A DNA stretch of 64,000 nt from an uncultured delta proteobacterium (lineage in GTDB: Bacteria > Desulfobacterota > RBG-13-43-22), in NCBI GenBank assembly GCA_963802945.1, contig CAWDKY010000017.1, forward strand, positions 224,001 to 288,000. The letters are read 5' to 3'. The notes under the pieces were generated by a model. It was given only the letters and a program-made list of their open reading frames with translations. It was not told the DNA's origin and ran no database searches. Positions 25,628 through 54,637 of the stretch are shown one piece after another. The position numbers were made by a program, and so were the translations under genes. How positions within the stretch are numbered: position 1 is the stretch's first letter; each line of letters begins with the position of its first letter.

Positions 25628-27172
25628 TTGAAAACACAATTCATTTTCCGTTTTTTGCTCGTCGGTTTCATTTTCTTAGGATTATGTGCCGTTGAAACCT
25701 TCAAGCTCGAGAGCAGCCCCCATCTTGAGTGGGATGAGGGCTGGACGGCCCTGGTGGCCCGTAACTGGGTTGAAAAAGGGCATTATGGCTTATGGTTGAT
25801 GGGAAAGCCGGCTCCACCGGCCCTTAATGCCTCCTTTCCTACCAGCAGTCTGGTGGCCCTTAGTTTTAAATGGCTGGGCGTCGGGATTTGGCAGGGGCGC
25901 TTGGTCGGTGTAGTATCTATCATCGGAAGTTTCATCCTGCTCTTTTTGTTAGTCCGCCGGCTTTTTAACCAAAAAACGGCTTGGTTGACCTTGGCGATCC
26001 TGTGCCTATCCCCCTTGCCTTATAAATTTCATCCCCTGGGAATTGGACGACAGATCTTGGCAGAACCGCAGATGCTTTTTTTTATACTGGCCGGGTATCT
26101 TTGCTTTCTATCCGCCCAGGCCAAACCCAGCTTTTATATGCCTTTAACCGTCCTGTTTTGGGGAACGGCCCTGATAACCAAAGCACAGGTCCTGCCTTTT
26201 TGGATAATCGCCTTGTTTATTCCCATGGTAATGAATCTTTATAAACGTCAATGGAAATCGGCCTGGCTTCTTGGAATAGCCCTCTTCGGGTCTTTAACCT
26301 TTTCTTACCTCCTGCTATGGTTTCAAAAACTCCTTTTGCAAGGTCAAACTCTTCCACGTGTTCCGGTCGAGAATCTTTATTGGATTGTCGCTTTTGTGTT
26401 TCAATGGCATATTCGCCTTGAGGCATTAAGCGACTGCTTGTGGTATGGCTGGCCGACCCTGTTGGGGTTAGGATATGGGGGCTGGAAATGGTATAAAAAA
26501 TTTAACCATAGCAATACTGATCCTGAAAAACACATGGTCCAACTTTCTCTACTTTTATTTGTCATAGGGTGGATCTCCTGGTTTGTATTGCTCTCCATCG
26601 GTTATCTTCGATATTTACTTCCGCCGGTCTTTATCGGAAGTATATTTGAAGCTGGATTATTGGGGGATTTGATGGGACGCGTCCGACTTGGATTATCGGC
26701 TGATCGGATAAGGGCGGTGATACGTTCTGTCCCTCTTAAAAGAAAGGTGATCTTTATCTTAGTAATGGTTGTTGGAGCTGCCGGTACCGCCTTCAATATT
26801 TCTATTCCCGATAGACTCCATCGATTCCTTTTCGACTCGGGAGATATTCCGCTTTTCCAAGCTGCCAACTTCCTTAACAACCATACCTCCTCTAAGGCCC
26901 TGATCGAAAGTTTTGATTCTCAAATACTTTTTCTTTTGGATCGTCCCATCCATTATCCACCCCCACACATTAATGGGGAGGTCACCAAACGCGTTTTCTT
27001 AAGACTTCCCTTAACCGTTGACTATGATCCACTCCTGACGACCGACCTGGATTATTTAGTCGTGGGCCCATATGGTCGATTATGGAAGCTTTACGACCCT
27101 ATTCTGAGGGAGAATCAATTTCATTTACTGCATACCTTTGGACTCTATGATATCTATGAACGCCGGCGCTGA
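25628..27172 (+). CDS. GT-C glycosyltransferase (ArnT/PMT-like)
   Basis: WDEGW first loop, GR, LAEP, LITK, RYLLP; soluble C-terminal domain. Confidence 0.82.
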   Translation: MKTQFIFRFLLVGFIFLGLCAVETFKLESSPHLEWDEGWTALVARNWVEKGHYGLWLMGKPAPPALNASFPTSSLVALSFKWLGVGIWQGRLVGVVSIIGSFILLFLLVRRLFNQKTAWLTLAILCLSPLPYKFHPLGIGRQILAEPQMLFFILAGYLCFLSAQAKPSFYMPLTVLFWGTALITKAQVLPFWIIALFIPMVMNLYKRQWKSAWLLGIALFGSLTFSYLLLWFQKLLLQGQTLPRVPVENLYWIVAFVFQWHIRLEALSDCLWYGWPTLLGLGYGGWKWYKKFNHSNTDPEKHMVQLSLLLFVIGWISWFVLLSIGYLRYLLPPVFIGSIFEAGLLGDLMGRVRLGLSADRIRAVIRSVPLKRKVIFILVMVVGAAGTAFNISIPDRLHRFLFDSGDIPLFQAANFLNNHTSSKALIESFDSQILFLLDRPIHYPPPHINGEVTKRVFLRLPLTVDYDPLLTTDLDYLVVGPYGRLWKLYDPILRENQFHLLHTFGLYDIYERRR

Positions 27173-28012: not shown

Positions 28013-28077
28013 GGAAAACTTGCAAAATTTGACTGGGTGATTTAAAAGCGTAAGGCATTCCTGCCTACAGGAAAAAC

Positions 28078-28887
28078 ATGCAATCCAAGGCGGCTCGAAT
28101 AGTAATGATCGTTTTGGCTTTGCTCTATCTTGTCCTTTCGAGGCACTAAGCGACTACCTGTGGTACGGCTGGCCGACCCTGTTGGGGTTAGGATATGGGG
28201 GCTGGAAATGGTATAAAAAATTTAACCATAGCAATACTGATCCTGAAAAACACATGGTCCAACTTCCCTACTTTTATTTGTCATAGGATGAATCTCCTGG
28301 TTTGTATTGCTCGCCATCAGCGATCGGCGATATTTACTTCCTCCGGTTTTTATGGGAAGTCTTTTTGTAGCCGACTTGCCGATGGATTTGATTGAAAATT
28401 TGTATCTCCGATTTTCTGGTAATCAGACATGAGTAATCGTAGATTATTTTTCTATTAAAGAAATTGTTGCTTGGTTTATTAATATTTATTGGAACTACCT
28501 TGATCTTCTTCAATGTTTCTTTTCCCAATAGACTCCATCATTTCCTTTTTGTCTCTGGAGATATCCCTCTTTTCCAGGCCGCCAGATTCCTTAATAAACA
28601 CACCTCTCCTGAAACCTTGATCGAAAGTTACGAATCCCAGCTCCTTTTCCTTTTGGATCGTCCCTACCCATTGCCCGCCTTCACAGGTTCCTGTGGAAGC
28701 CTCTAAGAGGGTTTTCCTAAGGATTTCCATTGCCGTCGACTATGATCCACTCTTGGCCGACCCGGATTATTTAGTCGTAAGCTCATATGGTCGATTATGG
28801 AGTCTTTATGAACCGCTACTGGCAACAAATCAATTTCGCTTATTGCATACCTTCGGGACCTATGATATCTATAAACCTCGGCGCTGA
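28078..28887 (+). pseudogene. Internally deleted, frameshifted paralogue of the GT-C gene at 25628
   Basis: 28140-28360 is near-identical to 26420-26640, and ~28525-28887 is similar to ~26810-27172. Confidence 0.9.
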
Positions 28888-29086
28888 AGAGTATTTTCTG
28901 GAGACTTTAAAGTAATTAAGTTATGAGAAAAGAAGTCATGAGCTCCAATATAAGTCTTCCTACTGTCATATCCATGTTTAAGCATCTCTTACAACCAAGT
29001 GTGCCTAGGCGAATTTCTAAAAATATTTTGTGGATGGAATGGGAAGAACAGGCAAGTAAATAAGCCGCTGGCAGGCTTTTACGCCG

Positions 29087-29371
29087 GTGCCCCTGGCCTA
29101 CTTCTTAACCGAAGTAAATAGCAGACTTTCTGACTGGGGATATCAGAAGCACTTAAGGTCCCACGAAAATTGCCTCACCAACCCTAATTTGACGATGTCC
29201 ACCTACAAGTCCTCAAATTTTAATCTGAAGGTGGCTGAAGATTACCAGCCGAAAGGATGCGTGATAAGGTAATAGGCTATGCCTGGTAGCCTCTGAGAAC
29301 CGCCTGGTGCGGATACCCGCATGGCAGGTGGTGTGTGAGGAGGGGGAGAGAAATATTCCTCCTTACCCGAT
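29087..29371 (+). mobile_element. 3' remnant of a group IIC intron (maturase trace plus domains V and VI)
   Basis: gaaccgcctggtgcggatacccgcatggcaggtggtgt has a domain V form with a CGC triad. A domain VI hairpin ggggagag-aaat-attcctcc follows and ends acccgat. Upstream LTEVNSRLSDWG resembles the maturase LN..LRGW motif. Confidence 0.8.
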
Positions 29372-29383
29372 TAGATGGCGTGC

Positions 29384-30583
29384 CTATCGTGATTTACTTG
29401 CATGTGCCGTCTGTGCAATCCATCCATAAAGAGATTGAGCCAGAATTATGTTCCCGGTATCGTTGAAATGGGAATCATGAGCCCATCGTGTCGAGACTCC
29501 ATTCCTGTTTGCCTTTAAAAGCTCCTCATATAACGGAATGTACCCAAAGCCATGTTCAGCACAAAGCTCATTCAAAGTCCTAGATACAATCTCACCATCT
29601 CCAAAATATTGTGATGCGTCCACAACAACCAATCTGCCGCCCGCATCATGAACTTTTCGCCCTAATTCTTCTATAATCTTCAGGTTAACCGCAAATAATA
29701 TGCCATCTTCATCTGCGTTGTTACTAGGCGGAATCGCATTCTGGTTTGAGGTTTGGTTAAAATGCTGTACCAACCTTTCAAAAAGGGCTTTCCCGTAATA
29801 CAAGGTGAGTAGTCGCATTTTTTTTCTGCGAATTCTCTTACCAGCAAATTCACCCTTTATCAAACCTTCTTGGGTCTTGACAAATCTCTGGTAATCTTTA
29901 GCAGATTTTCGTATCAATAGGCCATTTTCAAGGCCGAAAGTTGGTCTTATCCATAATTTCTCCTTTGCGGTAGAAGTGAATGCTCCGTATCCATACTTGT
30001 CGATCGTTCTTTCCATGTGAAATTTAGCGACAAATATTGCGACATAATCTGGATGATATCTCCTCGTATATTGCTCCCATGTCAGTAAATACTGTCCAAC
30101 TCCATAGTTGGAGATTCCAAAGTTGAGCACTTCCCATCTTTGGAAGCGTTCCGGACTCCTGTCGAGTGCGGTATTTAATCTCCGTTCCAAAAGCTGCGCG
30201 GCAGTCTTTGCAAAAGGGACTTGAATGGCCTCGATAAATGAATCTCCCAGAAGGGCCAAACGTGTTACTCCGGGGGGCTTTGAAAATTCTCTTGCAATGT
30301 CTCTGAATCCAAGAGGATTGGTTTTGACCTCAACACTGAAGTCAGCGGCAAACCAAGAATGACCCGCCCAAGTCCAACGGAGATTGGGAACCTGTTTCCA
30401 TCCTACAGCCTCGTCGGGCTGTAAGAAGAGTACGTCATAGGAGGGACGCATCAAAGCCATCACTTGTCCTGCCGCCTCGATCAAGAGCAAGAGGCCCAGA
30501 AAGACCATAATGTTCACTCCTACGATTGTTAGGGTTTTTGCTTTCAATGAAGAAAAAACTCCTCTTTTATCTCGTTTATCCAT
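29384..30583 (-). CDS. Membrane-anchored SGNH/GDSL-fold protein (AlgX/AlgJ/SxtL-like)
   Basis: N-terminal TM; N..GFRD, LLGDSF, NFGISNYG, DSHFN..G. Confidence 0.85.
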   Translation of the reverse strand: MDKRDKRGVFSSLKAKTLTIVGVNIMVFLGLLLLIEAAGQVMALMRPSYDVLFLQPDEAVGWKQVPNLRWTWAGHSWFAADFSVEVKTNPLGFRDIAREFSKPPGVTRLALLGDSFIEAIQVPFAKTAAQLLERRLNTALDRSPERFQRWEVLNFGISNYGVGQYLLTWEQYTRRYHPDYVAIFVAKFHMERTIDKYGYGAFTSTAKEKLWIRPTFGLENGLLIRKSAKDYQRFVKTQEGLIKGEFAGKRIRRKKMRLLTLYYGKALFERLVQHFNQTSNQNAIPPSNNADEDGILFAVNLKIIEELGRKVHDAGGRLVVVDASQYFGDGEIVSRTLNELCAEHGFGYIPLYEELLKANRNGVSTRWAHDSHFNDTGNIILAQSLYGWIAQTAHASKSR

Positions 30584-30650
30584 CTGACGGAACCAGCATC
30601 AACGGGAGTGACTGCCTTTTGCCACAATCCGGAGCCCGGTCAGGTTATGT
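30580..30650 (-). other. Degenerate integron attC-like site upstream of the minus-strand SGNH gene
   Basis: The minus strand reads ACATAAC..imperfect hairpin..GTCAGATGG over ~70 bp. GTCAGATGG is complementary to CCATCTAA found just after the gene's stop. Confidence 0.5.
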
Positions 30651-31082
30651 AAAAACTTATTTATCATAAAGTCCGTACTTAGATTCTAAGCAACCAAATC
30701 TGAGAATTTATCTCTAACTTTCAAATCCAGAGGTTTCGGGGGATTTTATTTTTGGGGTTGTCCACCAATAAGCTTGGAGCTCCGATTGTCGGGCCAAATT
30801 TTGAGTTTAGTCCATTATAGAAACCCTTGCCCGATGGTCAAGGTCAGAGTTTAGTGGCTATGCCTTTTGAACGACTCATTTGTTGTAACCAAAGACAACG
30901 AAACCTAAATTTCAAATATCTTTGTCTAGTATTATACACTATTTTCAAGTTTATCCGGAATAAATAATGATACCTTTGAGTACCTACTTTTCTCCTTGAT
31001 CTTGCTCTTTTCTTGCTTTATACTATTTCCTTTGAAAATCAATTTCTTGTCAATATCAGTAGTTTTAATTGTTGTCAAGAAT

Positions 31083-32240
31083 ATGCAAGAGGGTTCCACC
31101 TTGTTAAAAAAATGTTGCCGAAAATGTCGTCGAGTTATAATGGTAGGCGGCATTATTTTGTTTGATCTACTATTGGTGTTTATCATTGGAGAAGTTGCGC
31201 TCAGGATTATTCCAATTGCCGGGATAAAATATAATGAGTACCGGTTTGATCCTGATGTCGGAAGCGGCTTGTATCCACATTCCAAAGTGATTTATCGCAA
31301 TGATCAAGGCGTTCATGTTGTACGCGAAGTGAATCGTTGGGGGTTTTTGGATAAGGATCATGAGCCCCAAAAACCGGACGGTGTATTTCGAATTGGATTT
31401 TTTGGCGATTCTTATACCGAAGCGGAACATGTTGAATTGAAAGACACCTTTTTTCGACGGATTGAGTCCATGCTTACGCCAAAACGTGTTGAAACACTGG
31501 CTTTCGGGGTCACTGGGTATAGCATGTTGCAGGCCCATTTGCTATTTTTAAAATGGGCCGATTTTTTCGATATTGATCTGGCCGTGTATGTATTTGTTGA
31601 AAACGATTTGGGTGATCAGTTGGCAACCATTGATAGATCCTGGGATAAACCTTATCTTGTTTTGAAAGACGGCGAAATGGTCGTTGACTATGGATTTCGC
31701 GAAAAACATAAACATAAACAAAAATTCTTATATCGAATCGCTAAATATTTAACGGCTAAATCGCTTTTAATGGCCACGGTAAGTGAACGGTTGAAATTAT
31801 TGAAGCGATATGGCATTCAAATGCGGATCACGGAACAGGAACGTAAAATGGCCACAAAAGCAAAGGATGTGGTAAATGTTGTGGCAACTGATTTGCCTTC
31901 AACTTGGCCAATAGCACTTAGAAATGAAGCACAAAAATTGGGCAGACTGGAGCTATTAAAATTTCGTGAGGATGTTGCACGACACCAGAAAGATTTTGCG
32001 GTATTATATGTGCCCCGCGAAACAGAATATCAAAAACCGGTTTTGCAACAGGATTCATGGAAATTGTGGCTTGAAACGCTTTGTCGATATGAAGGAATTC
32101 GGTTTATCGATCCAACACTGATGCTTATGCGCACTGCGGCAGCCGGCCAACCAGTATATTATGATCATTTTACACCTGCCGGTCATGAAGCTTTTGCGAT
32201 TGCGTTTAAAAATTGGTTTGTACAAAACTATAAGTTTTAG
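31083..32240 (+). CDS. Membrane-anchored SGNH/GDSL-fold protein
   Basis: TM ending GEVALRI; NRWGFLD, FFGDSY, FGVTGYS, END, DHFTPAGH. The start codon is uncertain. Confidence 0.85.
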   Translation: MQEGSTLLKKCCRKCRRVIMVGGIILFDLLLVFIIGEVALRIIPIAGIKYNEYRFDPDVGSGLYPHSKVIYRNDQGVHVVREVNRWGFLDKDHEPQKPDGVFRIGFFGDSYTEAEHVELKDTFFRRIESMLTPKRVETLAFGVTGYSMLQAHLLFLKWADFFDIDLAVYVFVENDLGDQLATIDRSWDKPYLVLKDGEMVVDYGFREKHKHKQKFLYRIAKYLTAKSLLMATVSERLKLLKRYGIQMRITEQERKMATKAKDVVNVVATDLPSTWPIALRNEAQKLGRLELLKFREDVARHQKDFAVLYVPRETEYQKPVLQQDSWKLWLETLCRYEGIRFIDPTLMLMRTAAAGQPVYYDHFTPAGHEAFAIAFKNWFVQNYKF

Positions 32241-32272
32241 ATCTAGGTAAATGGCGAGAGAAGGAATAAGGA

Positions 32273-32491
32273 ATGCTTATTCTTGGCCTTTCCTTTTTTT
32301 ATCACAATTCGGCGGTATACTTGTTGAAAAATGGGGGAATTCTATTTGCTGCTCAGGAAGAGCGGTTCTCGCGTAAAAAGCATGCCCCCCGATTTCCGAT
32401 AAATGCGCTTAAAGCATTTTTAAAACGAGTATCTTTATGGGTATTGATTGACTGGACAAAAGGTGTTATTTTAATAGAAATTACAGGGTAG
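32273..32491 (+). pseudogene. 5' fragment of a second carbamoyltransferase
   Basis: ILGLSFFYHNSA..AAQEERFSRKKH parallels the N-terminus of the next gene, then the similarity breaks off. Confidence 0.85.
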
Positions 32492-32635
32492 ACCCCTGCA
32501 AGTCGTCGATTTTCTTAGAAGGTCCTTTGGCAACCTTAGACAAAACGATGAGCAGTCGAAAACCCGAAACAACCGGCAAGAAGAGGATGCTGGTGTGATC
32601 CGTTAGCTGGGTACAGAAGGTTGAGAGGTAACGCT

Positions 32636-34453
32636 TTGTATATTCTGGGGATATCGGCTTTTTATCATGACAGCGCAGCCTGTCTCGTCCGTGATGGGGA
32701 AATCTTGGCAGCCGCCCAAGAAGAACGCTTTACAAGAAAGAAGCATGACTTTAACTTCCCGACTAATGCGATTCAATACTGTTTGGATGCTGTTGGTATC
32801 AAAGGGAAAGATCTTGATTATGTTGCCTTCTATGATAAGCCCTTCATTAAGTTTGAGAGACTTTTAGAAACCTACCTGGCCTATGCGCCTGTAGGAATTA
32901 TGTCTTTCTGGAAAGCCATTCCTGTCTGGATCAAGCAGAAACTTTGGATATCGGACCTCATTAAAAAGGAACTTGATTACCCGGGGAAAATAATTTATCC
33001 CGAGCATCATGAATCGCATGCCGCAAGCGCATTCTTTCCGTCAGCATTCCAAAAGGCGGCCTTTCTGACAATGGACGGCGTCGGGGAATGGACGACGACC
33101 AGCTTTGGCGTGGGCCATGACAACAAGGTTGAGATCAACTCCGAGATTCACTTCCCGCATTCCCTCGGGCTACTGTATTCCGCCTTTACCTATTATACCG
33201 GCTTCAAGGTGAATTCCGGTGAATATAAGTTAATGGGGCTGGCCCCCTACGGCGAGCCGAAGTACGTTGATCTGATACTCAGCCGACTCATGGATCTCAA
33301 GGAAGACGGCTCCTACCGGCTGAACATGGATTATTTCAATTACGCGGTTGGGCTGACCATGACCAATGATAAGTTTGACCGACTGTTTGAGGGGCCCCCT
33401 CGAAAACCAGAATCCAAGCTTACGCAGAAGGAGATGGATCTCGCCCGATCTATCCAGGTGGTTACAGAAGAAGTGGTGCTCAGGACTGCACGGCACATTT
33501 ATCGGGTCACTGGCGAGCGATATTTGTGCCTCGCGGGCGGGGTAGCCCTAAACTGCGTGGCCAATGGGCGGATCTTGCGCGAAAGCCCTTTTGATGATAT
33601 TTGGATTCAGCCTGCCGCCGGTGACGCCGGAGGTGCTCTCGGTGCTGCCCTCTTTACTTGGTATCAGTATCTGAGTAACCAAAGGTGCGCAAATGGGTCG
33701 AGTGATTCTCAGAGAGGTTCGTTCCTTGGACCAAAGTATAGCAACCAAGAGATAAAGGCATTTCTTGATTCTCATGGTATCAATTATTCAGAGATTTCTT
33801 ATGAGCAAGTGTCCCAGACTGTCGCAGAGTTTATCACCCAGGAAAAGGTAGTGGGATGGTTTCAGGGCAGAATGGAGTTCGGTCCGCGCGCGCTCGGAGC
33901 GCGTTCTATTATCGGTGATGCCAGATCCCCGGATATGCAGTCAACCATGAATCTAAAAATTAAATTCCGAGAGAGCTTCAGACCTTTTGCTCCCTCGGTC
34001 TTGGAGGAACACGTTTTTGAACACTTTGAAATAGACAGGACGAGCCCATACATGTTGCTTGTGGCTTACGTCAAAAATGACAAAAGGCTTGCCATGACCG
34101 ACTCGGAGAAAAGATTATGGGGCATTGATCAACTTAACGTTGTTCGGTCGGATATCCCCGCCGTCACCCACGTCGATTATTCTGCCCGTCTTCAAACGGT
34201 CGATAAAACAACGAATCCATTGTACCATGAAATGATAAAAAAATTTTATGAAATGACTGGCTGCCCTGTTATCGTTAACACCTCTTTTAACGTTCGCGGA
34301 GAGCCCATCGTGTGTACACCGCTGGATGCATTTACCTGTTTCATGCGAACCGAAATGGATTATCTTGTGATGGAGAATTTCATATTGGATAAGAAAAAAC
34401 AGAAGGAGCTGGGCGAGGATATAGATTGGAAAAAGGAATTCGAACCGGATTGA
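32636..34453 (+). CDS. O-carbamoyltransferase, NodU/CmcH/TobZ/SxtI family
   Basis: ILGISAFYHDSAA, EHHESHAASAF, GEYKLMGLAPYG, GGVALNC, EFGPRALG, NTSFNVRGEPIV. TTG start with a gagagg RBS. Confidence 0.95.
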   Translation: MYILGISAFYHDSAACLVRDGEILAAAQEERFTRKKHDFNFPTNAIQYCLDAVGIKGKDLDYVAFYDKPFIKFERLLETYLAYAPVGIMSFWKAIPVWIKQKLWISDLIKKELDYPGKIIYPEHHESHAASAFFPSAFQKAAFLTMDGVGEWTTTSFGVGHDNKVEINSEIHFPHSLGLLYSAFTYYTGFKVNSGEYKLMGLAPYGEPKYVDLILSRLMDLKEDGSYRLNMDYFNYAVGLTMTNDKFDRLFEGPPRKPESKLTQKEMDLARSIQVVTEEVVLRTARHIYRVTGERYLCLAGGVALNCVANGRILRESPFDDIWIQPAAGDAGGALGAALFTWYQYLSNQRCANGSSDSQRGSFLGPKYSNQEIKAFLDSHGINYSEISYEQVSQTVAEFITQEKVVGWFQGRMEFGPRALGARSIIGDARSPDMQSTMNLKIKFRESFRPFAPSVLEEHVFEHFEIDRTSPYMLLVAYVKNDKRLAMTDSEKRLWGIDQLNVVRSDIPAVTHVDYSARLQTVDKTTNPLYHEMIKKFYEMTGCPVIVNTSFNVRGEPIVCTPLDAFTCFMRTEMDYLVMENFILDKKKQKELGEDIDWKKEFEPD

Positions 34454-34462
34454 GGTAGGTTT

Positions 34463-34873
34463 ATGGCAAAGGGAAAGACGAAAAAACCAGATAAAGAGGA
34501 ACTTCGAAAATTTGTGATTACTATCTCCATTGCCTTAGGTGTCCTTGGATGTCTTATTCTATGGCGCAAAGGAGGGGCAGGGTTAATTTTTATATCGATT
34601 GGTGCAGTAATTTTTCTTGTGGGTCTGGCGAGGCCTATGGCGCTCGCCCACCTTTACAAAGCATGGATGGCTCTTGCCCTGGTTCTTGGATTGGTCATGA
34701 GCCATATAATCCTTGGAGTGGTTTATTACCTCGTAGTGACGCCAATTGGGTTTTTCATGAGAATAGTGGCCAAAGACCAGCTTAGACTGGGGTTTGATCC
34801 CAAAGCTCACTCCTACTGGGTAAGGAGAGAAAAGAAAGAGTGGAATAGGAAAAGTTACGAAAAAATGTTTTGA
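34463..34873 (+). CDS. SxtJ-family membrane protein
   Basis: ELRKF, Y..WM.LA..LG, TPIG..MR...D.L, SYW, C-terminal YEKMF; directly follows the carbamoyltransferase. Confidence 0.85.
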   Translation: MAKGKTKKPDKEELRKFVITISIALGVLGCLILWRKGGAGLIFISIGAVIFLVGLARPMALAHLYKAWMALALVLGLVMSHIILGVVYYLVVTPIGFFMRIVAKDQLRLGFDPKAHSYWVRREKKEWNRKSYEKMF

Positions 34874-34888
34874 TTGAGGAGTGGAGAC

Positions 34889-35047
34889 ATGAGTAAATTG
34901 TCTATAATGATGGAGTTTTGGCAGTTCCTAAGAACTAAGAAGAAATATTGGTTGCTTCCTGTTATCATCATGCTCCTTGGTTTGGGCGCCCTGCTGATTC
35001 TTACCGAGGGGAGTGCTCTGGCTCCTTTCATTTATGCGGTTTTCTAA
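34889..35047 (+). CDS. Small membrane protein, SxtK/DUF5989 family (52 aa; absent from the ORF track)
   Basis: MSKLSIMMEFWQFLRTKKKYWLLPVIIMLLGLGALLILTEGSALAPFIYAVF with an upstream gaggag/ggag RBS. Confidence 0.9.
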   Translation: MSKLSIMMEFWQFLRTKKKYWLLPVIIMLLGLGALLILTEGSALAPFIYAVF

Positions 35048-35400: not shown

Positions 35401-37188
35401 ATGGAAAGAGGAAAAAAAATAGGATCCAAAGCAGCTCGAAAATGGATGATCTTTTTGACCGTGGTCTGGATTGTTCTTTTCATTGGTGCCGGGATCGTTT
35501 CCATCCTATCTTATTCAACAGCTAAGATCCTGGCCGACAGGGTCAGTATGGCCGGCAGTGCCCACCGCTTCACCTTAGATTTTTTCAATCAGATCCAAGG
35601 GCAGGCCTATTGGATAGTAATCTTCTTGGCCCTTATTGGAATCGTTTTCTTCCTCTTTCGAAAGAAGATCGAGCAATTTTTATTGGAAAAAATGCCTTCC
35701 GCCCTCAGTCCCGGTTCCTTTATCAATATCCCAGTTCTCTCCCGATGGGAAGTTTTGGGACTTTTAATCTTGACCGGAGCCGGTTTTTCCTTACGTCTAA
35801 TTCAAATGAATGGGATTGTCACCTACGATGAGGCATTCTCCTATTTCCAATACGCCCAAAACCCATGGATGGCCGTTACTGTGTATACCCATGCCAACAA
35901 TCATATCTTTCATAATCTCTTGCTTTCTATAATCACCTCTATCTTCGGAAATTCCTATGAGGTTCTTCGCTCAATAGCCTTGGTATGTGGTACCCTTTTA
36001 ATCCCCATGGTATTTTTAGCGGTTAGATCCACCCAAACAGAATACTCGGCTTTCAAGGGGTGGCTGGCAGCCTTAATAATTACTATTAACCCCTTGGTTG
36101 TAAAATATTCAGCTTTGGCCCGAGGGTATACCCTTCAAGCCCTGATCGGGGTTTTGAGCTGGGCCATATTTGTCCAAATCTTACAAGGTAGACGTAACCT
36201 TTTCTTCATACTTGGCCTTTTATCGGCTTTAGCCCTCTGGACGGTCCCAACCTCTGCCTATTTTGTAGTAGGTCTTGGATTTGCCATTCTGGGAAATGTT
36301 TTCCGAAGGCGGATCAACTTAAGTGACTTCTTTTTCTTCCTCATCATTACAGGGATAGTTACCTTCATACTTTGGATGCCGGCCGTGATCGTCTCCGGTC
36401 TAAAGGCCGTTTTGATAAATCCAGATAGTAACCCGGTCGCCGCAGGGGTAGTTGTGGACCATTTTTTTGGGCGATTCAAGTATGTTTGGGAGCCTTTATC
36501 TCTCTACCTGGGCACTTCGGTAGGGTTCTTAATAGTCATCCTCCTAACTCTTTGGGGCTTGTATGTGGCTCCTGCGGGCTGGCGGTGGATTGGGTTGGGT
36601 GTCTTGACTTCAATCTTTCTTTTAACCGCCTTCTTACAGGTGACCCCCCCCAAACGAGTCTGGACTTTCCTGGTGCCACTTCTGGCCATCCTGGTTGATT
36701 TTGGTGTCTGTAAAATATTCAATTTTTGGCAATCAATACATAAAAGGTTGGCCTTTTTAGTGATTGTCCTGCCGTTTGCTTATATAGCATTAGTCCTTCC
36801 CAATACGCTCAAATACGACGGTCCTGGACACAGAGAGGTCACTACCTTTGCTCGGGAAGTGGCAAATCAATGGACCCAGGGCCAAGCCATTAAAATAGAA
36901 GCCGACAAGACCACCATGCTTCAATCCAATCCAGATGATTTTTATATTTTTTACGATTGGAACAATGTCAATACAGTTAGATATTATCTTAACCAACAGG
37001 GGATTCCGAACTCTGCCTTTCTCTGGAGAAGCAAGGATTCATCTCCTACGGTCTGGTTGATATCCGTACAAGTAAACGGCAAGCCAATAGATCTCCAAGG
37101 TCCTGAAGGGAAAAAATTCCATTGGGACCTGATTATGGGTCCCTATTCTTTGGCCAAAGGCGTTGATAAAAGACAATTTTTGAATTGA
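35401..37188 (+). CDS. GT-C glycosyltransferase (PMT_2/ArnT-like)
   Basis: LR..TYDEAFSY, NNHIFH, ARGY; many TM helices. Confidence 0.82.
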   Translation: MERGKKIGSKAARKWMIFLTVVWIVLFIGAGIVSILSYSTAKILADRVSMAGSAHRFTLDFFNQIQGQAYWIVIFLALIGIVFFLFRKKIEQFLLEKMPSALSPGSFINIPVLSRWEVLGLLILTGAGFSLRLIQMNGIVTYDEAFSYFQYAQNPWMAVTVYTHANNHIFHNLLLSIITSIFGNSYEVLRSIALVCGTLLIPMVFLAVRSTQTEYSAFKGWLAALIITINPLVVKYSALARGYTLQALIGVLSWAIFVQILQGRRNLFFILGLLSALALWTVPTSAYFVVGLGFAILGNVFRRRINLSDFFFFLIITGIVTFILWMPAVIVSGLKAVLINPDSNPVAAGVVVDHFFGRFKYVWEPLSLYLGTSVGFLIVILLTLWGLYVAPAGWRWIGLGVLTSIFLLTAFLQVTPPKRVWTFLVPLLAILVDFGVCKIFNFWQSIHKRLAFLVIVLPFAYIALVLPNTLKYDGPGHREVTTFAREVANQWTQGQAIKIEADKTTMLQSNPDDFYIFYDWNNVNTVRYYLNQQGIPNSAFLWRSKDSSPTVWLISVQVNGKPIDLQGPEGKKFHWDLIMGPYSLAKGVDKRQFLN

Positions 37189-39400: not shown

Positions 39401-40795
39401 GTGATAAATTCTAAAATGATTCGTTCAAAAGCCGTCATGGCACTCTTAACCCTCTGTTTGTTAAGCCGACTGATTTTCTTTTTGGCCGTGAAGCCATGGA
39501 ATCCAGAGGTTAGAGATAACGTTATTCTGAAACAAGACGCCTTGCAATATCACCAGTTGGCCATTTCAATGACCCATTACCATCAATTTACTCAAGAAAA
39601 GGATGGGCCTTCTGATACCTTAAGAACCCCCCTATATCCTTTATTCATTAGTTTAATTTATTCGATTCAAAACCAGCCAAGACCTTGGACTGTCCTTTTC
39701 ATCCAGATTGTGATGGATACGGCATCCTGTGTTCTGCTCTTTTTTCTATTAACCCATGTACTAAACCGACTGGTTGCTCTTTATGCCGCATTGTTTTATG
39801 CCCTTGATCCATTTCTGATTTTATATTCGGTTACTTTGCTGAGCGAAATCCTCTTTGTTTTTTTATGTATCCTCGGGGCCTTTCTAATAACCAAAGGGGG
39901 TTCCCGGGAATTCGAGAGGGGAAGTGGTAAGTGGATAGCGGGATCTGCCATCACTTTCGGCTTTGCCACCCTAGTCCGACCGATAGCTCAATTTATTCCT
40001 TTTGTGGTCTTTTTATTTCTGCTTTATCCCTTAAGATATAGATTGAAAAGGGCCTTTGGATTGATTTTTTTGTTCTTCCTTTTTTTTATTCTGACTCTTT
40101 CACCTTGGATGGTAAGAAACTTGCTCCGTTTTAACACCCCTTCCCTTTCGACGGCGGGCAATTATAATTTGCTTATCTTATATGTCCAACCGATGGAAAT
40201 GGAGAGGAGAGGGCAACCTTCCGATGTCGTAGAAAGAAGTCTTCTTAATGAAGCGGATCATCTTATGATTCGGGATGGATGGGATCTCCAAACGATGAAC
40301 GATTTTCAGAAGGGGACTTATTGGAAAAAGTTGGCTTTCCATTATATCACCAACTATCCGTTCTCTTTTTTAAAACACTATTTTTTTGGAATTTTTCATA
40401 CGATGGGAAATTTAGCTACTGGTCCTTATGCTGATATGCTGAGAATTTCAAAAAGTACAGGCAAATTTCAAATCAAAGGTTATCACAATATAGTTGAGTT
40501 AATAAAAGCTTGGGTAACTCAAAAAACCTGGGAGGAAATAGGGATCGGTATGGTTATTGCGCTTTATCTTATGGTGTCTTATTTCCTTTTGGCGGTAGGC
40601 TTAATTGTTTTTTGGAGAAAATTTCGTCACCAAAAATTTTTATGGTTAATTTTTTTACTGTTCATTTATTTTATTTTCATTACCGGTTCAGCGGGGTTGG
40701 CCAGGTTTAAGCTTCCCGCCGTCCCTTTTTATCTGGCCTTTGTGGGTTTGGGGCTCCATCAATTCTTAAACAGGCATAGGGACCGCATTTCTTAA
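39401..40795 (+). CDS. GT-C glycosyltransferase (ArnT-like)
   Basis: QDALQY, LRTPLYPLF, LLSE, LVRP, PWMVRN, ARF.LP. Confidence 0.82.
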   Translation: MINSKMIRSKAVMALLTLCLLSRLIFFLAVKPWNPEVRDNVILKQDALQYHQLAISMTHYHQFTQEKDGPSDTLRTPLYPLFISLIYSIQNQPRPWTVLFIQIVMDTASCVLLFFLLTHVLNRLVALYAALFYALDPFLILYSVTLLSEILFVFLCILGAFLITKGGSREFERGSGKWIAGSAITFGFATLVRPIAQFIPFVVFLFLLYPLRYRLKRAFGLIFLFFLFFILTLSPWMVRNLLRFNTPSLSTAGNYNLLILYVQPMEMERRGQPSDVVERSLLNEADHLMIRDGWDLQTMNDFQKGTYWKKLAFHYITNYPFSFLKHYFFGIFHTMGNLATGPYADMLRISKSTGKFQIKGYHNIVELIKAWVTQKTWEEIGIGMVIALYLMVSYFLLAVGLIVFWRKFRHQKFLWLIFLLFIYFIFITGSAGLARFKLPAVPFYLAFVGLGLHQFLNRHRDRIS

Positions 40796-43760: not shown

Positions 43761-45194
43761 ATGTTATTTAACTCATTTACATTTTTAATTTTTCTATCAA
43801 CAGTATTCTTATTGTATTGGTTCGTCTTTCAGGAAAAAATAAAATTACAGAATTTTTTTATTCTTACGATCAGCTACTTGTTTTATGGCTGGTGGGATTG
43901 GAGATTTTTATTTTTGATTCTTCTGTGTTCAGGAATAAACTATCTCGGAGGAGTAGTATTAGCCTCTAATGAAAACCAGAAGAATAGAAAGTTAATACTT
44001 GTACTATCTTGTATTTTCAGTTTAGGTTTACTCGGCGTTTTTAAATATTTCAATTTTTTCATTGACAATTTCATAAATGCATTTGCTTTAGTCGGCATCC
44101 ATCTACAAGCAAGAATATTCAACGTTCTTCTTCCTGTGGGAATAAGTTTTTATACCTTAAAAGCGTTAAGCTATACCATTGACGTTTATAAAAGGAAGTT
44201 GGAACCAACAAAAGACATCATCGCATTTTTCTCCTTTGTCGGGTTTTTTCCGCAACTGTTGGCGGGACCTATTGACCGAGCCACAAATCTCCTACCTCAA
44301 TTTTATATAAAACGAACATTTGAATATGATAAAGCCGTTGATGGTATGCGCCAAATTCTATGGGGTTTTTTCAAAAAAATTGTGATTGCTGACAACTGTG
44401 CTATATATGTAAATAGAATTTTTACTGGCTACGAAACATTGCCTGCCAGTACATTGATATTAGGCGGGGTTTACTTCGCATTTCAGATATACGGCGACTT
44501 TTCAGGATATTCAGATATTGCAATTGGAACTTCTCGGCTGTTTGGTTTTAGTTCAATGCAAAACTTTAGCGTACCTTACTTTTCGCGAGACATTGCTGAA
44601 TTTTGGCGACGATGGCACATATCGCTTACTAGGTGGTTCAGAGATTATTTATACATTCCTTTGGGTGGTAATAGAGGAACTAAATATCAAGTTGTCAGGA
44701 ACACATTTATCATTTTTTTAGTATGCGGTTTTTGGCATGGAGCAAACTGGACATTTATTGCTTGGGGATTAATCAACGCTCTTTATTTTCTGCCTTTGCT
44801 CTTATTGGGGAAAAACAGAAAGAATACAGACACAGTGGCTCAGGGCAAAATATTACCAAATATAAAAGAGTTGCTTCAAATGGGAATAACATTTGTATTC
44901 GCTGTTCTGGCCTGGATATTTTTTAGAGCTGACAGCATTAGTCAAGCATTCTCATACGTTGGGAAAATCTTTGCAAAATCATTGATTACTGCCCCTAGAG
45001 GTTCAAACGTTAAGCTGATTTTACCTCTGCTATTAATCCTGGTACTGATAGAATGGTTGCAGAGAGACAAGCAACATGGATTGGAAGACTTAAAAATACA
45101 CCCTATTCTGAGATGGGCTGTATATATACTCATTTGTGTTTTATGTATTGCGTATTACGAACAGGACCAACAATTCATTTACTTTCAATTCTAG
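43761..45194 (+). CDS. MBOAT O-acyltransferase (AlgI/PatA/DltB family)
   Basis: MLFNS..F, LPVGISFY, FFPQLLAGPI, DFSGYSDIAIG, FWRRWHISL, GFWHGA; C-terminus FIYFQF. Confidence 0.95.
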   Translation: MLFNSFTFLIFLSTVFLLYWFVFQEKIKLQNFFILTISYLFYGWWDWRFLFLILLCSGINYLGGVVLASNENQKNRKLILVLSCIFSLGLLGVFKYFNFFIDNFINAFALVGIHLQARIFNVLLPVGISFYTLKALSYTIDVYKRKLEPTKDIIAFFSFVGFFPQLLAGPIDRATNLLPQFYIKRTFEYDKAVDGMRQILWGFFKKIVIADNCAIYVNRIFTGYETLPASTLILGGVYFAFQIYGDFSGYSDIAIGTSRLFGFSSMQNFSVPYFSRDIAEFWRRWHISLTRWFRDYLYIPLGGNRGTKYQVVRNTFIIFLVCGFWHGANWTFIAWGLINALYFLPLLLLGKNRKNTDTVAQGKILPNIKELLQMGITFVFAVLAWIFFRADSISQAFSYVGKIFAKSLITAPRGSNVKLILPLLLILVLIEWLQRDKQHGLEDLKIHPILRWAVYILICVLCIAYYEQDQQFIYFQF

Positions 45195-45200
45195 TGCCTT

Positions 45201-46148
45201 ATGAAAACATTCTTAATAAAAATAGTATTTTTCACTTTTATTATAATAGCTATATTATGTGTGGCTTTATTTTGGATTAAAAACCCAGATGTTAACGAAA
45301 GCTTAATGGGGGCATTACCCGACAAACATAAGCTTTTGAAAAATGCACAATCCCCCAAAATAGTTTTTGTTGGTGGTTCTAATTTGAGCTTTGGTTTGGA
45401 TAGCAGTAGAATTTCAGATGAGTTTCAAATGCCGGTTGTTAATATGGGCATCATGAGTAGTATTGGATTACGCTATATGATGAATGACGTGCTGCCGTAT
45501 ATAAAGAAAAATGATGTTGTTGTTTTAGTTTCTGAGTACTCAGAATTTTACTCACCGGAGTATTACGGAGAAATAGGGTTAGTTGCGATATTATTTGATA
45601 TATTCCCACAGGGCAAACAATTCATTTCTATTCAACAGTGGCAAAAATTAGCGCCCTATGTGTTTAAGTATAGTGCGATTAAAATAAAAAATATTCCATT
45701 GAGTTTAGTAAATAAATTTATGCCTAAATCCACAACAATTGGTATTTATGACAGGCAGTCTTTTAACAATTTTGGAGATGCATATATCCACTGGGATAAA
45801 CCGAGCAAAATCGTAAGTTGTGATAAAAAAGGTTCAGGGGAAGAGACAGTAAATGCATTTGTATTCTCGGAAATTAAAGAATTCAAAAACCATTTACAAA
45901 AAAAAGATGCAGAGTTGATTATGCTTCCTCCTGTATATCAGGAATGTTCCTTTAATAACCAGCAATATATAATCAATCAAATTGAAACACAATTAAAGGA
46001 AAACAATTTAGCATATTTAACTGCCCCTTTGCGTTATAGGTTTGCTGATTTTTTATTTTACAATACGCCTTATCACTTAAATAAACAAGGTGTGGATTTA
46101 CGAACAGACAGAGTAATAGAAGACTTGAGAATGCGAATTCGAAAATGA
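45201..46148 (+). CDS. Membrane-anchored SGNH-like partner acyltransferase (DltD/AlgJ/PatB-like)
   Basis: N-terminal TM; IVFVGGSN, VVNMG, TPYHLN..G; 6 bp downstream of the MBOAT gene. Confidence 0.75.
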   Translation: MKTFLIKIVFFTFIIIAILCVALFWIKNPDVNESLMGALPDKHKLLKNAQSPKIVFVGGSNLSFGLDSSRISDEFQMPVVNMGIMSSIGLRYMMNDVLPYIKKNDVVVLVSEYSEFYSPEYYGEIGLVAILFDIFPQGKQFISIQQWQKLAPYVFKYSAIKIKNIPLSLVNKFMPKSTTIGIYDRQSFNNFGDAYIHWDKPSKIVSCDKKGSGEETVNAFVFSEIKEFKNHLQKKDAELIMLPPVYQECSFNNQQYIINQIETQLKENNLAYLTAPLRYRFADFLFYNTPYHLNKQGVDLRTDRVIEDLRMRIRK

Positions 46149-51900: not shown

Positions 51901-53061
51901 ATGGAAGACAGAAAAAAAATAAATGTTCTTTTTATAATAGCTGACCTTAAAATCGGCGGTGCGGAAAAAGTACTGTTGAACCTTGTTAATAATTTAGATG
52001 CTCAAAAATTTAAGGCCGTCATTTTTTCACTCGGTGCACCCGATGATCCCCTTGTTAACTTGATTCGGCCTGAAGTGCAAAAAGAAGTGTATCCAAGGAA
52101 ATGGCGCTATGATATGTCGCCAGCTAATGAACTTATTCGTATTGTTGAAGAAAAAGAAATTGAAACGATCATTTCTTTTGGACTATTTCCTGCAATTTAT
52201 TGTCGTAAGGTACTCATTCGCCGGCCTTCTTTACAATTGGTGATATCGATCCATTCGACGAAACCAAGGAATCTAAAAGATCTTTTTCAGAAATATATCA
52301 TTCCTCGCCAACTTCCTTCAAATACAAGATATATTGCAATATCTAATAATCAGAGAGAATATTACGTAAGGAAGTTTTTCATAAATACAAATCGTTTCCA
52401 TACTATTTTTAATGGAGTGGATTCAACATTTTGGTGTCCTGCTCATAAAGCATTTGATAGAAAACTTAATCGTGAAAAATGGGGTATCCCTGAAAATGCT
52501 ATTGTAATTACCAATGTATCACTTTTTCGTCAAGAGAAACGGCATGACCTAATGCTTCAAGCTTTTGCCCGGATTCAAAAACAAAAGAATCTAGTTCCAA
52601 TATATCTACTTCTTGTTGGGGGCGGAAACGAAAAATATGAATCTAATATTAAGAAATTAGCACAAAATTTAGGAATTGCGAAAAAGGTCATATTTTCAGG
52701 GATACAATCTGATGTCCGTAGTTTTTATTGGTTGTCTGATATGTTTACACTTGCGTCAACGGAGATTGAGACATTTTCTTTAGCTGCGCTTGAAGCAATG
52801 TCAACAGGCTTACCTTGTGTTCTAACGGAGATTGGAGGAGCGAATGAAATGATAAGACCTGGAATAAATGGATTTCTTGTAAAACCCGGTTCTATTGATG
52901 GGCTTGTCAATGGGTGGGAGCGATGCATTCAAAGGCTTCCATTGTTTGATGCTAATAAAATACGTGATATCATCGTGAACCAATTTGATTTAAGGAGTTG
53001 CGTGCATAATTATGAAAAATTTTTACAGGAAATCGTTTCGCTCGAAGTTAAAGGAAGATAA
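51901..53061 (+). CDS. GT4 glycosyltransferase (AT-rich)
   Basis: GGAE, IFNGVD, EKRH, ETFSLAALEAMSTG. Confidence 0.92.
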   Translation: MEDRKKINVLFIIADLKIGGAEKVLLNLVNNLDAQKFKAVIFSLGAPDDPLVNLIRPEVQKEVYPRKWRYDMSPANELIRIVEEKEIETIISFGLFPAIYCRKVLIRRPSLQLVISIHSTKPRNLKDLFQKYIIPRQLPSNTRYIAISNNQREYYVRKFFINTNRFHTIFNGVDSTFWCPAHKAFDRKLNREKWGIPENAIVITNVSLFRQEKRHDLMLQAFARIQKQKNLVPIYLLLVGGGNEKYESNIKKLAQNLGIAKKVIFSGIQSDVRSFYWLSDMFTLASTEIETFSLAALEAMSTGLPCVLTEIGGANEMIRPGINGFLVKPGSIDGLVNGWERCIQRLPLFDANKIRDIIVNQFDLRSCVHNYEKFLQEIVSLEVKGR

Positions 53062-53158
53062 TAGAAAAATATATTATAACGAAAAACGCCAAGACCACGT
53101 CAATCTTCCCGGCCGTTCGGTAAGAGGCGAAATGATCAACGATAGCAGAGAGCCTCAA

Positions 53159-54637
53159 CTAGACATTCAACTTTTGTTTAATTCTTTCAATAAAAAGTCT
53201 GGGATGGCCGGAATAATATCTAAATTTTCTGAGATAGGAATTATAAGAGGCTTTCATTTTTTTGTTATGTTTATCTACAATTTCTGCTAAACTTTGGACT
53301 AATTGAAAATATTTTTCCCTGTCAATGTTCTTACAAAAATAATTCTCAAGCGATTGGTGAGAGTATTTGGACCAATCCAACTTCGTATCAATCATGCCCA
53401 TTTCTTTTGCCCTTTCATAACTTTCGCATCCTGGATAAGGAGTAAAAACAGAGAAACAAAGCGTGGTAGCAGTTGAATTTTTTGCATACTCAATTGTTTT
53501 TAATATATCTTCTTCCGTCTCCTCAGGAAATCCCACCATAAGAAAAACACCATAATTCATATTATGTTTAACTAAAAGGGAAAAAGCCTGGTAACATGTC
53601 TCCATGGTAATGTTCTTCTTAATTATATTCAACATTCTATTACTCGCCGTTTCTAAACCAATATCAATTGAAAAACAACCAGCAGCTTTCATTTTTGAAA
53701 GCAATTTGTCATCAAGAAGATCTGCTCGTGTTGTGCATTCCCATGGTAAATTGATTTTATTTGTAATAATTTTATCAAGTAATTCTTCTGTTCGACTCCT
53801 ATTCACTGTAAAACTGTCATCCCAAAAAAAATAAGAAGGGATTGCATATTTATTTTTCAACATAATTATCTCTTCTATTACATTATCCACATCACGATAT
53901 CTTACTTTTCTAGTCCAAGTAGTTTTCGCACTACAAAATGTGCAGTCATAAGGGCAACCTCGACTGGTTATAATAGACGAGATATTATCTTTTGAATACC
54001 GATTTATCCCAAGGAAATCTTCTCTGTCAGGAAAGGGGAAATTGTTGATGTCCTTCTCTAACGGTCTGTCAGCATTATGAATTATTTTCCCTTCAACCTT
54101 AAATGACAATCCTTCAATTTCAGTAAAAACATTTTTGTTGGACCTGATGGTTTTACATAATTCATGAAGCGTGTGCTCCCCCTCTCCCCTAACAACAAAG
54201 TCAACTATATTAAAGGATAGTAGTTCATCGGGTGCTATAGTTGCATGAGGTCCTCCTAAAACCACCTTACACCCAGAATCGTATTCCTTTGCTATTTGCG
54301 CAACCTTAATTGCGCTAGGAAGTTTGGCGCTCATAACAGTTATGCCGATAACTTCAGGTTTTGATTTTGAAATTATTTCTGCAATCTCGGACCAGATTTC
54401 ATGGTGATCGTTGTCTAAGGCCTCAATATACATGGGGTGCCGGTTCAATAACTCATTATAAGATGGTGAGGAAATATTCTCCTTTTCTCCTTCTTTGGGT
54501 AAATCGGCATTGTAAACTGACGCAGATATATCATTTGTTTTCAAATATCGGGTAAGGTATCCTAACCCAAGAGGAATATAGGCCATATTAATGCCCATGA
54601 ATCTCATATAAGGGGGATTTATTAATAGAATTTTCAT
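53159..54637 (-). CDS. Cobalamin-dependent radical SAM protein (AT-rich)
   Basis: LINPP..PLGLGYL, LGGPHAT, VRGEGE, TSRGCPYDCTFC, GLET, PYPG. Confidence 0.92.
   Translation of the reverse strand: MKILLINPPYMRFMGINMAYIPLGLGYLTRYLKTNDISASVYNADLPKEGEKENISSPSYNELLNRHPMYIEALDNDHHEIWSEIAEIISKSKPEVIGITVMSAKLPSAIKVAQIAKEYDSGCKVVLGGPHATIAPDELLSFNIVDFVVRGEGEHTLHELCKTIRSNKNVFTEIEGLSFKVEGKIIHNADRPLEKDINNFPFPDREDFLGINRYSKDNISSIITSRGCPYDCTFCSAKTTWTRKVRYRDVDNVIEEIIMLKNKYAIPSYFFWDDSFTVNRSRTEELLDKIITNKINLPWECTTRADLLDDKLLSKMKAAGCFSIDIGLETASNRMLNIIKKNITMETCYQAFSLLVKHNMNYGVFLMVGFPEETEEDILKTIEYAKNSTATTLCFSVFTPYPGCESYERAKEMGMIDTKLDWSKYSHQSLENYFCKNIDREKYFQLVQSLAEIVDKHNKKMKASYNSYLRKFRYYSGHPRLFIERIKQKLNV

Follow-up and report, generated by a model that had tools for sequence, protein, structure and literature searches.

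In a 64,000-nt stretch of DNA from an uncultured delta proteobacterium of the Desulfobacterota (GenBank assembly GCA_963802945.1, contig CAWDKY010000017.1, positions 224,001 to 288,000 of the forward strand; hereafter the window), we examined a group of five genes at window positions 29384-35047. They encode two membrane-anchored proteins of the SGNH/GDSL fold (SGNH_A and SGNH_B), a carbamoyltransferase (CT), a small SxtJ-family membrane protein and a DUF5989 (SxtK-like) microprotein of 52 residues. We propose that these genes form one envelope-modification module in which the DUF5989 microprotein is a DltX-like shuttle that carries a carbamoyl group on a tyrosine near its C-terminus, and we hold this tentatively, at a probability of about 0.4. 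A working relation between the tail of the microprotein and the SGNH proteins is partly supported: it is indicated by the tail motif, the predicted topology, gene co-occurrence, rates of divergence and, weakly, by a predicted complex. A preliminary description of this DNA had placed the five genes within the same interval, and translation and Pfam searches found each of them there, as a divergent gene pair (SGNH_A / SGNH_B) followed by an operon-like run of CT, SxtJ and the DUF5989 peptide.

The DUF5989 microprotein and its tail

The microprotein gene runs on the + strand from an ATG at 34889 to a stop at 35047. The ATG lies 16 nt past the stop of the SxtJ gene, with a GAGGAG Shine-Dalgarno sequence 7 nt ahead of it, and the protein collection holds an identical predicted peptide (P0007) bearing PF19451. 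The match to PF19451 (DUF5989) covers model positions 2-49 of 49 (E 2e-22, 79.4 bits against a cut-off of 27). The peptide is composed of an amphipathic basic N-terminus with an RTKKK patch, one hydrophobic helix and a tail (TEGSALAPFIYAVF), giving the C-terminus FIYAVF.

Within the DUF5989 family, conservation is highest in this tail. The best 120 of 751 close homologues all end FIY[AT][LIV]F, exactly at the C-terminus (120/120). We also collected genome loci, keeping 80 of 584, with taxa that include KSB1, Desulfobulbaceae, Pelagibacteraceae, Bradyrhizobium, Magnetospirillum, Nitrospirae, Omnitrophota and Gemmatimonadota and with no cyanobacterial locus among the kept 80. All 82 peptides at these loci, from many phyla, end [FW][IVL]Y[TAS][LIVF]F exactly at the C-terminus, a count to be set against a sample that leans to intact tails because one of the two DNA fetch patterns held 'APF'. 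Finally, a profile search of 1.84 billion representatives returned 5150 clusters at 50% identity (E <=0.001); with this number, and with matches in 47 of the 201 genomes that we sampled from the window's phylum, DUF5989 is a widespread family. The best 150 of the 5150 clusters comprise 129 that end precisely with the motif, 14 in which the motif is followed by an unrelated extension, 5 that keep F-I-Y and diverge after it, one that ends YIYAIF and one in which Cys replaces Tyr; the 19 extensions past the Tyr may reflect read-through or frameshifts. The conservation of the Tyr and the terminal Phe, on which the preliminary description depended, was therefore confirmed (120/120 best homologues, 82/82 locus peptides and, for the Tyr, 149/150 representatives), and the motif exceeds what chance would give.

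As that description had also stated, FXYXXF is known as the acyl-shuttle hexapeptide of DltX and of MBOAT proteins such as PatA, in which the acyl group rides on the Tyr (PMC12148441). The DUF5989 tail has the same register, with Tyr at -4 and Phe at -1 and -6. PatA of N. gonorrhoeae ends FIYANF (PMC12148441), and the four MBOAT proteins of the window's own genome end FIYFRF, FLYFRF, FIYFQF and FIYFQF, again in the register of the DUF5989 tail. One of these, a DltB/AlgI-like protein that ends FIYFQF, is encoded in the window (43761-45194, + strand; Pfam MBOAT 1.5e-23) and served as our comparator for the tail; it matches the TIGR04091 DltB model at 6.5e-43, under the cut-off of that model, and is part of a separate acylation system.

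At E <=10, a Pfam scan of the peptide returned only DUF5989 and a chance-level match to DUF5976 (0.15), and no match to PF12459 (DltX), in a range where the HMMER filters drop most matches above ~0.1. A PDB sequence search with the peptide profile found only chance transmembrane (TM) matches to viral envelope proteins (E ~1). Viral contigs yielded one match, weak and confined to residues 2-21; in that collection, phage essentially do not carry the membrane form.

Charge distribution gives a consistent topology for the peptide and its candidate partners. Across 82 peptide sequences, the median number of Lys/Arg residues is 5 on the N-terminal side of the helix and 0 on the C-terminal side, and the SGNH family has medians of 3 before its N-terminal helix, which was detected in 77 of 91 sequences, and 1 after it. 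By the positive-inside rule, these biases put the peptide tail and the SGNH domains both outside, so that the tail and the SGNH catalytic domains are predicted to share the outer side of the membrane. In architecture the peptide thus resembles DltX, as a single-TM microprotein that ends F-x-Y-x-x-F and whose C-terminus is predicted outside from its charge bias. The outer ends of both helices bear conserved residues: T-[EQ]-G-S at residues 39-42 of the peptide, and E-x-x-L-R...P-G at residues 37-47 of SGNH_B (alignment A3; E37 invariant, L40 and R41 conserved at >=90%). The two patches may form a contact pair.

The likeness to the DltX/DltB/DltD system extends to the size of about 50 residues, the single TM helix, the basic N-terminal side and the outside tail F-x-Y-x-x-F (PMC12148441), as well as to an SGNH-type partner with an N-terminal TM anchor. 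Unlike Dlt, the module has neither an MBOAT nor a carrier protein, its partners being a soluble CT and the small SxtJ, and the group would be carbamoyl rather than D-alanyl. In addition, the whole DUF5989 peptide is strongly conserved, not its tail alone, and the Pfam DltX family does not match it. Pairs of an MBOAT and an SGNH protein (PatA/PatB, AlgI and WssH types) have the same tail motif and likewise a periplasmic SGNH protein as acceptor, and some genes of the SGNH family that we profiled from beside the peptide (A2) lie directly beside tail-bearing MBOAT genes (L048, L082, L006). In those pairs, however, the MBOAT serves as both channel and catalyst, draws on acetyl-CoA and has the tail as part of its own chain, whereas in the module a separate microprotein bears the tail, and the donor is an enzyme of an unrelated, ATP-dependent family. 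Pathways other than Dlt are stated to lack a DltX-like microprotein in the source for these systems (PMC12148441).

SGNH proteins beside the peptide

SGNH_A (29384-30583, - strand, 399 aa) is divergent from the rest of the module. Its translation has an N-terminal TM helix, block I as LLGDSF and block V as DSH. The protein falls within the A2 family profile, with G113, S115 and H372 conserved, and is matched by it at 2.9e-81 in the whole-genome search, while Pfam gives Lipase_GDSL_2 at 2.9e-06, under the gathering score. SGNH_B, with the motifs FFGDSY and DHF, lies in an open reading frame (ORF) at 30996-32240 (+ strand; longest form 414 aa) with likely starts at 31083 (385 aa) or 31140 (366 aa, the same as collection protein P0276). 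Both are assigned to the SGNH/GDSL fold, although their Pfam scores alone are under the cut-off (28.3 and 21.1 vs 32.9). In alignment A3 of SGNH_B with its relatives (91 sequences), G108, D109, S110 and H362 are invariant, and N174, D175 and D361 are conserved at >=90%.

An AlphaFold2 model of SGNH_B (pLDDT 94.9) has the SGNH fold, with Z of 14-21 to many SGNH structures. The closest solved structure is CgnD (Z 20.8, root-mean-square deviation 4.0 over 247 residues), which is also the top match in Foldseek (E 6.2e-07) and which matches the A3 profile marginally at the sequence level (E 0.0002). The next-best SGNH structures have Z <=15.6, and PatB has Z 13.6. DltD, AlgX, AlgJ and OatA are not among the matches listed by Foldseek (top ~49) or VIA-align (50), which does not exclude a likeness to them. 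CgnD is described as a slow leader peptidase that acts on a 21-residue basic precursor ending Ile-Tyr-Trp, from a cluster that also has a carbamoyltransferase (PMC10070186). Judged from the modelled fold, this likeness suggests that the SGNH lineage handles Tyr-containing peptide tails.

SGNH genes were expected, in the preliminary description, to be enriched near such modules. Genome-wide and neighbourhood counts agree, short of universality (one of five tested genomes with no SGNH within 10 kb of the module lacks the family). Among the 201 genomes, for which counts were cross-tabulated by hand, A2 is present in 44/47 peptide-positive and 42/154 peptide-negative genomes, an enrichment that is inflated because the A2 profile was built from SGNHs beside the peptide, that comes from related genomes which are not independent samples, and that involves two kinds of genes which both favour glycan clusters. 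At shorter range, peptide and SGNH genes are no more than 5 kb apart in at least 22 places in at least 19 genomes (among the 150 of 260 SGNH matches listed), with such pairs often 26-140 bp apart on one strand. Across phyla, the A2 profile matches within 5 kb in 31/80 loci and within 2 kb in 24/80. Two membrane-anchored SGNH genes are near the peptide in the window, and the best 4 of the 7 SGNH profile matches in its genome are all at the two peptide loci.

Some individual loci link the peptide to SGNH genes apart from a CT. In L063, the sole peptide copy of the genome lies between two SGNH-TPR genes, with CT and SxtJ on another contig, and L054 has the order SGNH-peptide-SGNH with no adjacent CT, this peptide being the second copy in that genome. 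L082 has, beside a regular SxtJ-peptide-CT module and arranged back to back with it, an operon led by a second, divergent DUF5989-like peptide (9121-9252, - strand, 43 aa, ending FLYALF), which continues with three SGNH genes and an MBOAT that bears a tail (FIYFDF). Other orphan peptides adjoin unrelated genes (ClpB, BatA, radical SAM, nucleoside symporter).

Structure prediction of SGNH_B together with the peptide gave a median ipSAE of 0.55 (runs 0.55, 0.47 and 0.61), compared with 0.00 for the best of 3 controls; the runs share >=81% of their contacts, and partner pLDDT is >=72. The mark set for this score is reached by 58/80 solved complexes and 2/110 mismatched pairs, and at <=0.60 by only 7/80 solved complexes and both of the passing mismatches, so a score of 0.55 is in a band more often wrong than right unless the pair is already likely. 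The complex of peptide and SGNH protein suggested in the preliminary description thus passes weakly, as a score and not as a set of contacts. None of the three checks taken from that description (tail conservation, SGNH enrichment and complex prediction) went against its proposal.

Carbamoyltransferase, SxtJ and the surroundings of the module

The CT gene (32621-34453, + strand) encodes a 610-aa protein of the NodU/CmcH/TobZ type. Pfam finds Carbam_trans_N (1.7e-105) and Carbam_trans_C (3.2e-73), both domains being full-length (PF02543, 353.7 bits, 2-346 of 346; PF16861, 245.3 bits, 1-170 of 170), and the motifs EHHESH and GPRALGARS are present as in TobZ, NodU and CmcH. It has neither a signal peptide nor a TM helix and is therefore predicted to be cytoplasmic. 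Against the NodU equivalog model NF041651 it gives a partial match only, below the cut-off (136.3 bits vs 1000). Characterised enzymes of the type are soluble, stand-alone and act directly on small molecules, whereas the module CT has two membrane partners (66/80 loci). Between SGNH_B and CT, the first ~55 residues of a 72-codon ORF (32273-32491, + strand) are 54% identical to CT residues 6-60, which marks this ORF as a relic of a duplicated CT N-terminus. The SxtJ-family protein (34463-34873, + strand, 136 aa) has basic N- and C-terminal ends and matches PF19588 (5.9e-13, 49.9 bits against a cut-off of 24.4). In SxtJ proteins (66 sequences plus that of the window), conservation is seen at aromatic, Pro and Gly residues, at G-K-D and Y-W on the cytoplasmic side and at a C-terminal Q-F.

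The peptide has CT and SxtJ as its neighbours in 66/80 loci; of the 14 other loci, some are truncated by the end of a contig. Five exceptions with full flanks come from genomes that have CT and SxtJ elsewhere (5/5), and the peptide gene is single in 4/5 of these genomes. The same association is seen in the 201 genomes, where the families are present in 47 (peptide), 36 (SxtJ), 63 (CT C-terminal domain) and 86 (SGNH A2). CT was found in 43/47 peptide-positive compared with 20/154 peptide-negative genomes, the 4 peptide-positive genomes without CT having weak or partial peptide matches, and SxtJ in 33/47 compared with 3/154. The CTs of peptide-negative genomes are more distant (E 1e-72 to 1e-134 vs 1e-200 or better), and at 7/7 CT loci from such genomes there is no SxtJ, peptide or A2 SGNH nearby, nor did a crude regular-expression scan find a convincing Tyr-tailed small ORF beside the CT. 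At a further locus (L098 of G033), a module-type CT has no partners in view, with a run of N directly after it.

Two natural fusions connect these proteins. In L084 (3465-5729, - strand), a 754-aa protein joins CT (residues 4-598) to SxtJ (623-745), with an SGNH gene before it and a peptide gene after it, and P0404 (183 aa) is a fusion of SxtJ and DUF5989. The fusions point to a physical complex of CT, SxtJ and peptide, with the CT on the cytoplasmic side. Our search for longer forms of the peptide gave 10 proteins, mostly N-terminal over-calls plus the one SxtJ-DUF5989 fusion; none of the 10 fuses the peptide to an SGNH or MBOAT protein, an absence that is weak evidence. An MBOAT was found within 10 kb in only 5/80 loci.

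The components diverge at different rates. Median identity to the window proteins across phyla is 61% for CT (62 loci), which stays at 50-72%, and 59% for the peptide (80 loci), whereas SxtJ is at 33% (45 loci) and the SGNHs, of which BLAST aligns few, are at ~22%; the SGNHs are often in 2-3 copies.

The neighbours of the module are envelope-glycan genes, including a methyltransferase, a hexapeptide acyltransferase, a sugar aminotransferase, the MBOAT described above and three PMT_2 proteins. The latter, membrane glycosyltransferases of the GT-C class (ArnT-like; 25628-27172, 35401-37188 and 39401-40795, all on the + strand; Pfam), are clustered here, which suggests that a glycan is built or decorated on the outer face of the membrane. 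A scan of 29-36 kb for promoters and terminators found no more sites than in shuffled sequence. The ~1.4 kb upstream of SGNH_A (28013-29383) have only ORFs of <=83 aa on either strand. Beginning 7 nt past the tail-bearing MBOAT, an ORF of 315 aa (45201-46148, + strand) with no family match other than DUF7061 at 0.04 may encode its periplasmic partner, and another MBOAT of the genome (on C15) is followed by a weak A2-type SGNH (E 2.8e-07). The G+C content is 0.348 in the 2-kb bins 44001-46000 and 52001-54000, compared with 0.41-0.49 elsewhere, and these bins may be recently acquired portions of the glycan cluster.

The genome also has a second, decayed copy of the module on the minus strand of another contig (C16, 165952-170346; L003 7953-12335). 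Its order is a B12-radical SAM gene, an SGNH_B-like gene (410 aa), a CT fragment, a DUF5989 pseudogene and a 714-aa SGNH-domain protein. The CT fragment retains residues 3-149 only and the pseudogene has an in-frame TGA and the tail PLIYTLF; both SGNH genes are intact.

Outside the window's phylum, DUF5989 loci are found in Pelagibacteraceae, rhizobia, Nitrospirae, Planctomycetes, Omnitrophota and others. On pSymB of the model rhizobium S. meliloti (L100, 6800-11002), a divergent SGNH/GDSL gene (443 aa) is accompanied by a 144-aa hypothetical protein at the SxtJ position, a 49-aa peptide that ends FIYTLF, and CT. Most of the 30 matched Sinorhizobium plasmid records list no feature for the peptide gene. 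By published description, the saxitoxin block sxtI-J-K-L has the same gene set and order, with CT, SxtJ, a 165-nt ORF and a GDSL-type gene of ~426 aa (PMC2679770, PMC2684587). This likeness comes from published descriptions, and in the saxitoxin pathway a small alkaloid rather than a glycan is the acceptor. SxtI, SxtJ and SxtK are said to act together, no function being known for J and K (PMC2679770, PMC2684587, bioRxiv 10.64898/2026.06.11.731795), in agreement with the preliminary description, which knew of no function assigned to SxtJ or SxtK. The GDSL-type gene sxtL is a proposed decarbamoylase, and in L. wollei, where sxtI is truncated and sxtL absent, carbamoylated products are not made (PMC3037375). 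Our literature search found no paper naming DUF5989 and, judged from titles and abstract openings, none describing a carbamoyl relay.

A proposed carbamoyl relay and the alternatives to it

On the shuttle reading, the cytoplasmic CT would make an activated carbamoyl group from carbamoyl phosphate and ATP, a chemistry that is established for the TobZ/NodU family. SxtJ would hold the CT at the membrane, as the gene fusions suggest, and the carbamoyl would be loaded onto the invariant Tyr, at -4, of a tail that by its charge bias would sit on the outer face of the membrane. The catalytic Ser of an anchored SGNH protein would then take the carbamoyl and hand it to acceptors of its own, probably glycans built by the adjoining GT-C and GT2 enzymes. 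One conserved loading machine would thereby serve several divergent, acceptor-specific SGNH transferases; the constancy of CT and peptide beside variable, multi-copy SGNHs appears to fit a shared loading step with acceptor-specific last enzymes.

Several points weigh against this reading, in addition to the sampling biases and the band of complex scores given above. No membrane route is visible, as the CT substrates would be inside and the Tyr tail is predicted outside. The module is without an MBOAT, the nearest being 8.7 kb off, and all 4 MBOATs of the genome carry tails of their own. The preliminary description passed the carbamoyl group through SxtJ, a step that the SxtJ sequences do not support: in the 66 sequences and that of the window, the membrane segments have no conserved His, Ser or Asp to catalyse or conduct a transfer, so SxtJ looks like a scaffold rather than an MBOAT-like catalyst. 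Carbamoyl-serine enzymes usually turn over slowly. No SGNH gene was found within 5 kb in 49/80 loci, and of 5 genomes that have the module with no SGNH within 10 kb, G207 has no A2 match anywhere and G206 has weak ones only. Finally, the likeness of the SGNH_B model to CgnD suggests that the SGNH reaction could be cleavage rather than group transfer. The relay as first described therefore keeps its motif, its co-occurrence and a weak complex score, and is set back by membrane crossing, by the role of SxtJ and by CgnD as the closest structure. The shuttle reading is nevertheless the best single explanation, at the probability given at the outset.

Among the alternatives, the one that survives best, which we regard as unlikely, is that SxtJ and DUF5989 are a membrane tether that keeps the CT at the inner face, where it carbamoylates a lipid-linked sugar or other membrane-near acceptor directly. 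The tail would then be structural, and the SGNHs would act on the same glycan by themselves, as editing esterases or decarbamoylases, in the way that SxtL has been proposed to be a decarbamoylase (PMC3037375). Such a tether requires no trans-membrane transfer, and it agrees with the physical membrane complex indicated by the CT-SxtJ and SxtJ-peptide fusions, with the lack of catalytic-looking conserved residues in the membrane segments of SxtJ, with the position of the module among GT-C (PMT_2) and other glycan genes, and with the modules that have no SGNH near them (49/80 loci), or none at all in 1/5 genomes tested. It leaves unexplained, however, why an exact copy of a shuttle motif is at the C-terminus, on the membrane side opposite the CT, why some peptide copies, extra or sole in their genome, are enclosed by SGNH genes at a distance from any CT, and why the CT stays at 50-72% identity across phyla given very different acceptors.

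The closeness of CgnD raises a different idea, credible though in our view improbable, namely that the peptide is a substrate. As in crocagin biosynthesis, a CgnD-like SGNH protein would cut the Tyr-containing tail off the anchored microprotein, and a small modified peptide would result from carbamoylation by the CT of either the peptide or what is released from it. The crocagin pathway does combine a carbamoyltransferase (CgnI), a CgnD-type SGNH protein and a short basic precursor ending Ile-Tyr-Trp, with an essential Tyr near its C-terminus (PMC10070186); CgnD is closest to SGNH_B by a clear margin (Z 20.8 vs <=15.6), and the weak complex score fits any contact of peptide and SGNH protein. 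Against this, CgnA is a soluble precursor of 21 residues that is consumed, whereas DUF5989 is a membrane microprotein with a tail almost invariant from SAR11 to rhizobia to the window's phylum, unlike natural-product cores. Its Tyr is at -4 as in the shuttles, compared with -2 in CgnA, and the module is in glycan clusters. The neighbouring ORFs of the window gave no Pfam match to the binders CgnB and CgnE or the dioxygenase CgnC, which leaves a CgnD-like fold and a CT as the shared elements, and this reading inherits the topology problem that the CT poses for the shuttle.

The least probable alternative, to which we give little credence, is that the FIYxxF tail is a non-covalent handle that recruits or regulates periplasmic SGNHs at the CT-SxtJ complex, for example to couple cytoplasmic carbamoylation to periplasmic processing, with a Tyr that never carries a group; co-occurrence and the weak complex score fit this equally well and no trans-membrane transfer is required, but the Tyr is the covalent carrier in every characterised system with the motif as described in PMC12148441, and because it is Tyr and not any aromatic residue that is invariant (149/150 best representatives), its hydroxyl probably matters.

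If the shuttle reading fails, the exact reuse of a shuttle motif beside SGNH enzymes would still want explanation. If it is true, the acyl-tyrosine relay would take in a chemical group and a donor enzyme both new to it, and the module would have either a novel way for an activated group to pass the membrane or a tail presented to both sides. Functions would be assigned to DUF5989, to SxtJ and to a large SGNH family, SxtJ, SxtK and SxtL would be reinterpreted, and the conservation of a four-gene block across phyla would be explained. Overall, CT, SxtJ, DUF5989 and the SGNHs might then constitute a general and widespread, MBOAT-free form of trans-envelope O-carbamoylation via a protein tyrosine, a generalisation that we find rather doubtful as yet but worth serious consideration.

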